The notes: generated by a model not told the origin, from the letters alone. Counted from the stretch's first letter, positions 8,129 through 27,955 are shown. The stretch is 64,000 nucleotides of DNA from Pecten maximus (GCF_902652985.1 NC_047027.1:6758001-6822000), one strand, 5' to 3'. Made by a program: numbers and translations.

Positions 8129-8771
8129 TATGGTGGCTGATTTCTGCCATTTCGTTGTTTCGTTCTGGCGCCCCGACAGAACGATAATCTTCGTCTTTTC
8201 GCCCCCGATAATTAGCGTTATGGCGCCGCGCCATAACGAAAAGACGCCACAACTCAACGCGAAATAACGAAAACGTGAAGCCGCTAATCAGCGGGGCGAG
8301 TTAATTCGCCCCGCTAATCAGCGTCTTTTCGCCCCGCCATAACGCTGTTTATCGTTATGGCGCCCCGATAAACAGCGTCTTTTCGCCCCGACAAGACGAT
8401 AATTATCGTCTTTTCGCCCCGCTGTTTATCGTTATGGCGCCCCGCTAAACATCGTCTTTTCGCCCCGCCATAACGCTGTTTAGCGTTATGGCGCCCCGCT
8501 AATCATCGTCTTCTCGCCCCGCCATAACGCTGTTTATCGTTATGGCGCCCTGCTAATAATCGTCTTTTCGCCCCGCCATAACGCTGTTTATCGTTATGGC
8601 GCCCCGCTAAACATCGTCTTTTCGCCCCGCCATAACGCTGTTTACCGTTATGGCGCCCCGCTAATCATCGTCTTTTCGCCCCGCCATAACGCTGTTTATC
8701 GTTATGGCGCCCCGCTAAACATCGTCTTTTCGCCCCGACAAGACGATACTTATCGTTATGGCGCCTTCCGG
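8129..8771. repeat. Left terminal inverted repeat with ~54-bp tandem subrepeats
   Basis: Repeated cgtcttttcgccccgccataacgctgtttatcgttatggcgcccc units; reverse complement of 27160-27955. Confidence 0.9.
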
Positions 8772-9820
8772 CTAGTCATGCGCTGAGCAATCTTTCATAG
8801 AAGATGGCGGAGCAAAGCAGTTACACCAGCCTTTTGAACGGAGACAATACCACTAGTATCCTTTTTATTTAGCTTTAATAACCTTTTAGGTGAGTTTTAA
8901 AATGGTTTGGTACACATTGTACCGCTTATGTTCACTTGTGCTGTTATCTATATCTTCGAATATACGGTTAAGTTGCTTTTTTCAATTTTACATTTTGAAA
9001 TCATAATTTATATTCAGTAAAAATGTGTAACGTGTTGTTAAATACAATTTCTGATAATTTTCCTTAAACATTGTCAGAACAGGATCTAATAAGAGAATAT
9101 CATTTTGCTGGCTACACGTACTCCGAGATTATTCTTATTCTTTTCTACCGACATCACGTGTCTATAAGGTTTGTATGTTTGTTTTTCAGACTATTTGGAC
9201 AACGCTTTAAATATTTGTTTTTTTACCACATCATTGTTTCCCTCTGTATGAGGATGTTATATCTTTAATGTATTTTGAATGAAAGTTGAGAAGACATGTT
9301 TGCGAGAAAAAGCATTGCATGTTATATATAGTGAGTTTACAAAGCCACGTTTATATTTATGTAATATTAATTATAAGCTGTTATTTCAGCTGTAGACACA
9401 ACTACATCGGATATTCAGATCACTAGGTCTTCGTCGTCAGCATGCGGTAACGGATGAAGTAGTTCAAGCTATACAGGTAAGTGTATCCTCCTTATTTGGT
9501 AAAATACATACCTGGTGAAAAGTGTCATTTTGTTCAGCTCATATACTCACTTCGGATAAGTTATTCCAGTATGATTTATAATGAAGCCCTGACAGGAATG
9601 TATAAAACGCAGATGCATTTATAATTGTTATCGCATTTGTCGCATATTCGTTAATGAAAAAAACAATAATTGCGGCCATTTGTGATGAGCAACCAATTTT
9701 CCGCCATTCGCATATGTCGTATGTATTGTTGATCGAGTTTCTATTTTAAAAAAATAAGCAAACAAAGCTTCACAGTATGGATATATGCATCACTTAAAAC
9801 TATGTACACACACATATATC

Positions 9821-26667: not shown

Positions 26668-27159
26668 TAAATAAATGGTTCTATTCTCCTGATATTTTTT
26701 TCATGTGTCTCCTTGCAAATCTATATTTAAATTGTTAATATATTGTCCTTGTTTCATCGATTTTAAGTTTGAATTATGTTTTCCTTGTGCTGTCGGTGTT
26801 ACTTATTTGAAATTGAATGGGGGCGTTTCTGATAAACATTGGGTTATGCGTTCCTCTTTGATATGCATATATATCAATTTGAATAAAGAATAGAAGACAA
26901 ATTAATTACTGAGTACCTGTGTTTTCTTGTAGAGATTTGATGTGACTCACTTCTATTTATCACCCATTGGTATCTTATCTACACCATTTATAAACTAATA
27001 AGTCTACACAAAACATACACAATGAAATGTATGCCATAACAACAAACAATTTAATGTATGATGTATGCTATAAAAACACAAAACTATGATACGTACCTTT
27101 CCCTTCATATCTCGTAACATGTTTAATATACCACAGCAAGCATGGGCATATCATGCATA

Positions 27160-27955
27160 CCGGAAGGCGAAAAGACGATGATTAGCGGGGCGCCATAACG
27201 ATAAACAGCGTTATGGCGGGGCGAAAAGACGATGATTAGCCGGAAGGCGCCATAACGATAAACAGCGTTATGGCGGGGCGAAAAGACGATTATTAGCGGG
27301 GCGCCATAACGATAAACAGCGTTATGGGGGGGCGAAAAGACGATGTTTAGCGGGGCGCCATAACGATAAACAGCGTTATGGCGGGGCGAAAAGACGATGA
27401 TTAGCGGGGCGCCATAACGATAAACAGCGTTATGGCGGGGCGAAAAGACGATGTTTAGCGGGGCGCCATAACGATAAACAGCGTTATGGCGGGGCGAAAA
27501 GACGATGATTAGCGGGGCGCCATAACGATAAACAGCGTTATGGCGGGGCGAAAAGACGATGATTAGCGGGGCGCCATAACGATAAACAGCGTTATGGCGG
27601 GGCGAAAAGACGATGTTTAGCGGGGCGCCATAACGGTAAACAGCGTTATGGCGGGGCGAAAAGACGATGATTAGCGGGGCGCCATAACGATAAACAGCGT
27701 TATGGCGGGGCGAAAAGACGATGTTTAGCGGGGCGCCATAACGATAAACAGCGTTATGGCGGGGCGAAAAGACGATGTTTAGCGGGGCGCCATAACGATA
27801 AACAGCGGGGCGAAAAGACGATAATTATCGTCTTGTCGGGGCGAAAAGACGCTGTTTATCGGGGCGCCATAACGATAAACAGCGTTATGGCGGGGCGAAA
27901 AGACGCTGATTAGCGGGGCGAATTAACTCGCCCCGCTGATTAGCGGCTTCACGTT
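27160..27955. repeat. Right terminal inverted repeat with ~12 copies of a 54-bp subrepeat
   Basis: Unit aaacagcgttatggcggggcgaaaagacgatg(a/t)ttagcggggcgccataacgat; inverted relative to 8272-8771. Confidence 0.9.

Follow-up and report, generated by a model that had tools for sequence, protein, structure and literature searches.

IS3EU-type DNA transposons carrying a HECT-domain gene: a ruined, non-autonomous family in Pecten maximus and its intact relatives

Introduction

The closest described relatives of the element studied here are the IS3EU/GingerRoot transposons. As excerpted from PMC10045372 and PMC6839031, these share with it TA..TA ends (TATGG..CCATA in our case), 6-bp target duplications, an rva_4 integrase-like DDE transposase and an animal host. 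However, the TIRs of our family, hereafter family A, are about 610-660 bp long and hold tandem arrays, as against 100-150 bp in GingerRoot (PMC6839031, excerpt); the second gene here is that of a HECT ligase, and family A is non-autonomous. The IS3EU superfamily is merely listed in PMC4455052, and its structure and function were called largely unexplored in the excerpted part of PMC11934779. Fungal TET+ IS3EU elements with an alpha-kinase, as far as the available portion of PMC12730594 describes them, have the same kind of ends (TAYGG..CCRTA) and 6-bp duplications and also carry the gene of a protein-modifying enzyme on the strand opposite to the transposase, but the cargo there is an alpha-kinase and TET/JBP rather than HECT. 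VANC of VANDAL elements is likewise an additional gene carried by a transposon, with a proposed action on host control, whereas the gene described here is that of a predicted ubiquitin-adding enzyme. Ulp1 and OTU proteases, moreover, are carried by other transposon superfamilies.

On the side of the ligases, the nearest described types are G2E3 and the class IV HECTs GL-Metazoa and GL-Bikonta, whose HECT domain is, in the excerpts of PMC3673628 and PMC2837046, highly divergent, like that of the element proteins. The latter differ from G2E3 in carrying SAM and ubiquitin-fold domains and no PHD/RING fingers, and in being multi-copy and mobile. G2E3 itself is described as an H3K14-ubiquitin ligase and writer for pericentromeric heterochromatin (PMC12920882, excerpt), and its HECT domain was called non-functional (PMC3673628, excerpt).

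No link between IS3EU and HECT was found in literature listings and the opening parts of abstracts, although Repbase entries and supplements may describe a second protein. The words 'HECT' and 'ubiquitin' are absent from the accessible portions of PMC10045372, PMC6839031, PMC11934779 and PMC12730594 (text and Table S1), as is 'transpos' from those of the HECT surveys PMC3673628, PMC2837046 and PMC11353290.

Results

The window, i.e. the whole 64,000-nucleotide stretch of Pecten maximus DNA that was analysed (GCF_902652985.1 NC_047027.1:6758001-6822000), contains one copy of family A. Its 5′ terminus is the TATGG at 8129, where a left TIR (8129-8779, + strand) begins that has a 54-bp tandem array inside; in three complete copies of the family the TIRs measure 607-664 bp (98-99%), i.e. 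more than 30 bp, as in IS3EU/GingerRoot. The inverted arms at 8269-8765 and 27462-27958 agree over 497 nt with 97% identity, which bears out the long TIRs of a preliminary description made from the sequence. Their spacing of ~20 kb, also given there, is peculiar to this copy: family A elements are 10.0-10.6 kb long (about 10.3 kb), and the window copy owes its 19.8 kb to an LTR-like insert of 2.8 kb, a LINE of 5.9 kb and expanded repeats. The right TIR (27166-27958, − strand), in which the 54-bp array is expanded, is cut off. It ends at 27958, ~140 bp short of the terminus in complete copies, and in a genome scan with the terminal 24-mer the left end alone matches at the window locus. With this outer part of the right TIR lost, the window copy lacks its right terminus, and no target duplication can be read for it.

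Between the TIRs lie the remains of two genes that face each other. On the + strand, a putative first transposase exon (MAEQSS..., 8804-8889) was recognised by eye and has an in-frame stop that recurs in 10/10 aligned copies; two further remnants, EQDLIREY... at 9074-9169 (N-terminal helical region) and HRIFRSLGLRR... at 9391-9477, were also recognised by eye and have no Pfam match. A remnant at 12836-12920 (QQDIQCS / GYRSMTY), frameshifted in the window, occurs in only two of the ten aligned copies, namely the window and C1:20.2 Mb. The exon with the first catalytic Asp (HVD) is found at 14976-15123; its frame is broken just upstream of GPNY (GPNYL at 15044-15058), and the next catalytic exons are missing. 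The last transposase remnant (DYKILVG... RKPSTYS, 21998-22200), assigned because it resembles the final family D exon, contains a stop. On the − strand, the most N-terminal surviving piece of the HECT gene is an N-lobe exon at 25992-26147, which corresponds to residues 486-536 of the 698-aa relative P0064. It is followed by a frameshifted exon at 25160-25400 (DQFRKGL at 25370-25390, FSFEGSNKR with FSFEGSN at 25225-25245) and by the C-lobe exon at 24543-24781, which is frameshifted after FWTGA..PP (FWTGA at 24725-24739), contains the catalytic Cys (PTAYTC, with PTAYT at 24645-24659) and ends in GFHLA-stop. In all, ~210 HECT residues are left, in broken frames. When 12 exon pieces of the family, 11 of them in the window and the other in a sister copy, were scanned against Pfam, two were matched: the GPNY exon by rva_4 (E 2.5e-5; 24.5 bits, below the cut-off of 26) and the C-lobe exon, the last on the − strand, by HECT (E 8.7e-6; 26 bits, above the cut-off of 23.9). 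All motifs named in the preliminary description are present on the strands given there. Its view that introns and frameshifts hide the genes captures part of the matter, as the frameshifts are present and large parts of both genes are in addition deleted. In contigs of four public runs, which are only guessed to be RNA, cover of 21440-27130 is scattered and no splice joint was seen over that interval, which is not proof of silence.

The LTR-like insert (9820-12627, + strand) is flanked by a 5-bp duplication, ATATC, and is absent in sister copies. It has 697-bp direct repeats, 100% identical and lacking a TG start or CA end, and a 360-aa ORF with a CCHC zinc knuckle; no RT was seen in it. This insert is very recent. 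Downstream, in a transposase intron, a 28-32-bp minisatellite (13200-14400) has 32 core units in the window and 4-18 in nine sisters. The second nested element, an L1/Tx1-like LINE (15555-21429, + strand) that is also absent in sister copies, is bordered by the 11-bp duplication AAAGTTTTCCT and has an open endonuclease-RT ORF (ORF2) of 1276 aa at 16704-20534. A short frame of 123 aa (15476-15847) may be a remnant of ORF1.

A genome search with the left end of family A gave at least 40 matches (the best 40 of 133 candidates), and a terminal pattern covering families A and D was matched 91 times, its reversed control not once. Ten loci were extracted. Nine have exact ends, lengths of 10.0-10.6 kb and 6-bp duplications, and the tenth complete copy, with a one-base end variant, is flanked by a 6-bp duplication too. 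The TATGG..CCATA ends and 6-bp target duplications proposed earlier are accordingly found in 10/10 complete copies, and by these features the window element is a member of IS3EU/GingerRoot. The 300-bp flanks of the nine exact-ended copies have no blastn match among themselves. Identity is 98.5-99.5% among eight copies. The window copy and the one at C1:20.2 Mb agree at 98.9% with each other and at ~96% with the rest, in an alignment that includes a short unrelated stretch. Since the HECT exons lie inside TIRs at unrelated sites, the idea that they belong to a syntenic host gene, raised as a risk in the preliminary description, is ruled out, and the HECT gene almost certainly travels with the element as a unit, i.e. 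is part of the transposon. Pairs of family A/D ends spaced 0.16-1.3 kb apart, MITE-like in appearance, were also noted (for instance C11:22385550-22386006 and C18:1178397-1178908); the two that were examined have no matching 6-bp flanks.

For the state of the two genes we compared 19 family A copies: the window and two sets of nine, the second chosen to be larger or more diverged. In all 19 the GPNY exon is the only part of the transposase catalytic region that was found, with the first Asp alone kept, and the HECT gene begins at about residue 486 of the 698-aa P0064, ~500 N-terminal residues being lost. With the middle catalytic exon of family D as query, 47 matches were obtained, at five family D and three family B loci among others and at no family A locus. 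The break upstream of GPNY and the two HECT frameshifts are common to 10/10 aligned copies; a more diverged copy, at C5:270 kb, has a single one of these HECT frameshifts and the same deletions. No intact master was found among the larger and more diverged copies drawn from the best-scoring genome candidates, the same deletions being present throughout. Because the lesions are common to the aligned copies, they would predate the spread of the family, which would have moved in trans; as both genes are ruined in 19/19 copies, family A therefore spread non-autonomously. In the copies examined, family A encodes no working ligase or transposase, and the window copy is a dead, passively copied element. 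We infer that the family multiplied after both genes had died, with transposase supplied by a helper, for which families D and B are candidates. Family D shares 23/25 terminal bases with family A and has one copy with open catalytic exons; family B shares the first 10 and is young.

The convergent pair is whole in sister families and in other hosts. At C1:57.9 Mb, the family B transposase exons are open across D-D-E, the right TIR is rearranged, and 11 exons match the 717-aa P0080, ending in PTAHTC...GFNLV; the layout of its last HECT exons equals that of the window remnant. Families E (C3:10.12 Mb) and F (C18:2.86-2.88 Mb) have TIRs beginning TACG, open transposase frames and convergent HECT frames of 687 and 615 aa respectively, with flank duplications, judged by eye, of 7 and 6 bp. 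The family F transposase is spanned by a contig of run X2 that lacks an 801-base GT-AG intron, and the family F HECT frame by one of run X1. That these two runs are RNA is a guess; the splice joint in the former points to a transcript of the transposase. Sister transposases match rva_4 at E 1e-27 to 1e-78, and in an alignment of 31 sequences the D, D and E columns vary little or not at all. Two metagenome elements (L081 and L112) have the complete convergent pair, TIRs and 6-bp duplications. The earlier proposal that the element encodes its own E3 ligase is supported for these relatives, where the ligase is a predicted one, and fails for family A, where both genes are deleted in 19/19 copies. 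In a further family, G (L046:1153-2601, − strand; L045:1854-3542, + strand), the transposase starts in a SAM-like manner by eye, although Pfam does not match this start, and the HECT gene opposite bears a SAM, so that a SAM-SAM link is possible.

Next to family members, we measured the pairing genome-wide, as the preliminary description had suggested. A Pfam HECT search of the Pecten maximus genome gave at least 95 matches (the best 129 of 142 candidates), which fall into 57 loci. Of these, 26 face a convergent transposase, against a chance expectation of ~0.2% per locus: 19 with a listed convergent transposase, six of 19 loci that were extracted, and the C775 element, which has a transposase fragment. 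All 26 are among the 41 lower-scoring loci, and for none of the 16 loci at 44 bits or above is a transposase listed less than 20 kb away (lists were the basis for 15, and one was extracted); this division was drawn after the list had been inspected. No transposase was found at 13 of the extracted lower-scoring loci, one of which is cut by a contig end, and the remaining two lay outside the extracted set. Among metagenome contigs (80 kept of 95) a convergent transposase is present on 28, and on 20 of the 25 contigs with at least 2 kb downstream (18/21 after clustering at 90%); upstream of HECT, none was found on the 18 contigs with 2 kb on that side. One contig, L152, has another gene layout. 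Named relatives are from bivalves, abalone, many fish, a frog and a firefly, and the HECT profile gave 1,260 clusters at 50% identity (E up to 1e-30). Near-identical copies at multiple loci occur in fish, oyster and firefly, one cichlid sequence being found on 7 contigs. A close relative on a 10.8-kb contig, P0005, is labelled as a bacterial MAG and is probably host DNA in the bin. Of the HECT-domain loci found in the Pecten maximus genome, 26/57 are transposon cargo, so that the numbers of HECT or 'G2E3-like' genes given for molluscs and fish may be too high.

The intact protein is predicted to have the architecture SAM / ubiquitin-fold / HECT. In the predicted model of P0001 (family F; mean pLDDT 80.8) the N-terminal domain is helical and the next one mixed; a disordered linker then leads to a HECT domain of ~350 residues in the two-lobed fold (Foldseek E 8e-12 to HUWE1). 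Pfam SAM is matched in P0064 (E 2.6e-10) and not in P0080 or the main family F ORF; the SAM assignment is based on P0064 together with the HECT partner in family G. In a fold search the middle domain is ubiquitin-like (Z 7.4-9.5). The Polycomb RAWUL/ULD type gave the top values (Z 9.5, 8.7 and 8.5) but was tied with ordinary ubiquitin-like domains, and the domain is therefore named by its fold only. The catalytic Cys, which is kept in the window (PTAYTC), is present in 9/10 aligned family A copies, in 40/41 aligned proteins and in 102/104 further representatives that cover the site (of 139). Canonical HECTs use a Phe near the C-terminus. The element proteins are of two deep types, one of which (A/B) ends in GFxLx (GFHLA, GFNLV), with the Phe four residues from the C-terminus as in canonical HECTs, and the other (E/F) in WVMDII, without it.

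Across nine pairs of related elements the HECT gene has a pN of 0.17-0.32 against a saturated pS of 0.74-0.92; owing to this saturation omega could be given for two pairs alone (0.05-0.06). The window HECT exons, compared with family B, also have pN far below pS. Within family A, dN/dS values of 0.47, 0.59 and 2.0 on 46-54 codons were too noisy for use. The HECT gene of the intact sisters thus bears signs of purifying selection, and it evolves faster than the transposase in 8/9 pairs, which would be compatible with an arms race against the host as well as with weaker constraint.

As to its affinity, 5/16 matches to the A/B type are named 'G2E3-like', a labelling that had been foreseen. In predicted-model comparisons the family B HECT scored 2070 (TM 0.84) against the chordate PHD-bearing G2E3 cluster and 828-1067 against HERC4, NEDD4-type and AREL1 clusters, so that chordate G2E3 appears to be its nearest host-type cluster; the tree contains no G2E3 sequence. 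P0080, P0064 and P0001 have no CxxC pair and no PHD match, and because they lack the G2E3 zinc fingers the element proteins are not G2E3 orthologues. Two unusual architectures were seen. P0185 (1170 aa) joins HTH_psq, DDE_1 of the pogo type, PHD and an element-type HECT, and is either a gene-model fusion or a HECT with another transposon class. In the fish proteins P0186 and P0188-P0193 an element-type HECT is joined to Neuralized or to CARD and caspase, possibly through host recruitment.

Not all IS3EU families have the second gene. Family C has an intronless, open transposase of 452 aa and short TATGG..CCATA ends, with 6-bp duplications in the four copies that have both ends and 99.4-99.7% identity among the three compared. 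With two profiles, both of which detect families A and B, no HECT was found in six copies of family C and six of family D, nor in larger family D elements of 23.5 and 28 kb, whose size is due to duplications and inserts; none was found near several single transposase loci within the stretch examined. The preliminary description held that copies lacking the HECT gene would refute the pairing. At the level of the superfamily such copies exist, since the transposase is complete in families C and D and no HECT accompanies it, while family A copies keep HECT remnants. In a tree of 31 transposases, whose root is not known and which includes no reference Repbase IS3EU sequence, the HECT label needs four changes, at least three of them forced by well-supported branches, and HECT-bearing elements stand on both sides of the deepest split. 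HECT losses would be the simpler reading of this unrooted tree. Transposase and HECT distances over 24 pairs are correlated weakly and above chance (rho 0.15; 100/5000 permutations): tips and shallow clades match between the two trees, deep branches are mixed, and one HECT clade has both deep transposase types.

Discussion

We propose that the second gene, which is the element's own, would encode an active HECT ubiquitin ligase, an optional accessory that is not needed for cut-and-paste. When intact, it would take ubiquitin from a host E2 onto the C-lobe Cys, find its substrate through the SAM and ubiquitin-fold domains, and tag some protein of the host, not the partner transposase. A chromatin or silencing factor would be the most plausible target, and its tagging would help the element to persist. 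The preliminary description had offered degradation of silencing factors or control of the transposase as possible functions. We lean towards this reading because the gene appears to be old, selected, catalytically equipped, yet has been exchanged among lineages of transposases and is missing in a very young family; we give this reading as a whole a probability of about 0.58. Its parts are not equally firm. That the protein of the intact relatives is an active ligase is probable, judging by the near-universal Cys, the HECT fold and the low pN, while a host protein as substrate is only somewhat favoured over other targets. The weak co-descent, the HECT-less families, the nearness to the G2E3 type and, by analogy, the cargo of fungal IS3EU elements (PMC12730594, excerpt) speak for such a substrate; the E/F tail WVMDII, without the canonical Phe, speaks against the reading, as do the 15 of 41 lower-scoring HECT loci for which no transposase is on record. 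Because family C spread recently without HECT in cis, any benefit of the ligase would be optional or supplied in trans.

The most serious competitor would also have an active, element-borne ligase, with the partner transposase as substrate, which it would limit or switch, for example by clearing it from the strand-transfer complex. The convergent layout is fixed across hosts, the shallow clades match in both trees, so that the weak co-descent may fit this reading too, and the family G transposase has, by eye, a SAM-like start similar to that of its HECT partner. However, one HECT clade is associated with both deep transposase types, the correlation is only 0.15, and families C and D do with a complete transposase and no HECT; we regard a transposase substrate as possible, although unlikely. 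Less probable again is a role outside transposition control that would account for the upkeep of the gene, be it a selfish germ-line effect, a host benefit or a non-catalytic decoy that binds ubiquitin or E2. Purifying selection says just that the protein matters to lineages that spread, a related HECT is fused to CARD-caspase and Neuralized in fish, and the E/F-type tail is non-canonical, but a Cys retained in 102/104 relatives speaks against a pure decoy, and the near-identical multi-locus copies of fish, oyster and firefly look mobile rather than like fixed host genes.

Two further explanations would take the HECT pieces away from the transposon. A host gene fragment could have been captured passively, as reported for GingerRoots in the excerpt of PMC6839031, and family A does keep a mere fragment. 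Yet its nearest relatives are parts of other IS3EU elements, with values of 53-57% for family B and the C775 element; the search that gave these relatives showed no member of the high-scoring group of 16 HECT loci, and both the exon layout, which is that of family B, and a pN far below pS against B oppose passive capture; this account is already largely refuted and very improbable. The last, that the TIRs overlap a resident host gene by chance, is refuted: at 18 further loci these exons recur between the TIRs, the nearest recognised downstream host gene is a dynein heavy chain on the opposite strand, and no support for it was found.

If the proposed accessory ligase with a host target is extended, IS3EU might be the main animal reservoir of divergent 'G2E3-like' HECTs, a swappable E3 acting on chromatin silencing, from which the HECT of chordate G2E3 was domesticated. 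This is speculative and, in our estimate, doubtful; if true, the heterochromatin machinery of the host would include an enzyme that began as the counter-defence of a transposon. A ubiquitin ligase kept by transposons under selection would give a testable handle on how they act on host proteins. One genome offers compact intact pairs (families E and F) together with a natural HECT-less comparison (family C); the window copy is itself a dead witness only.

Several neighbouring features were recorded in passing. At 2-1417 of the window (+ strand) two ORFs match Baculo_F (envelope-like) and are probably the end of an LTR retroelement. A 629-aa frame at 3447-5336 (+ strand) has a 45-bp tandem array of ~31 units inside, and the stretches beside the array resemble, by eye, a membrane receptor. 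The dynein heavy chain exons (DHC_N1, DHC_N2) span 38743-60439 (+ strand), and within that gene lies a piggyBac-type element with 44-bp arrays and an open 569-aa transposase at 52448-54157. Elsewhere in the genome, at C17:6812607-6829364, five decayed rva_4 gene copies stand in tandem with a spacing of ~4.08 kb.
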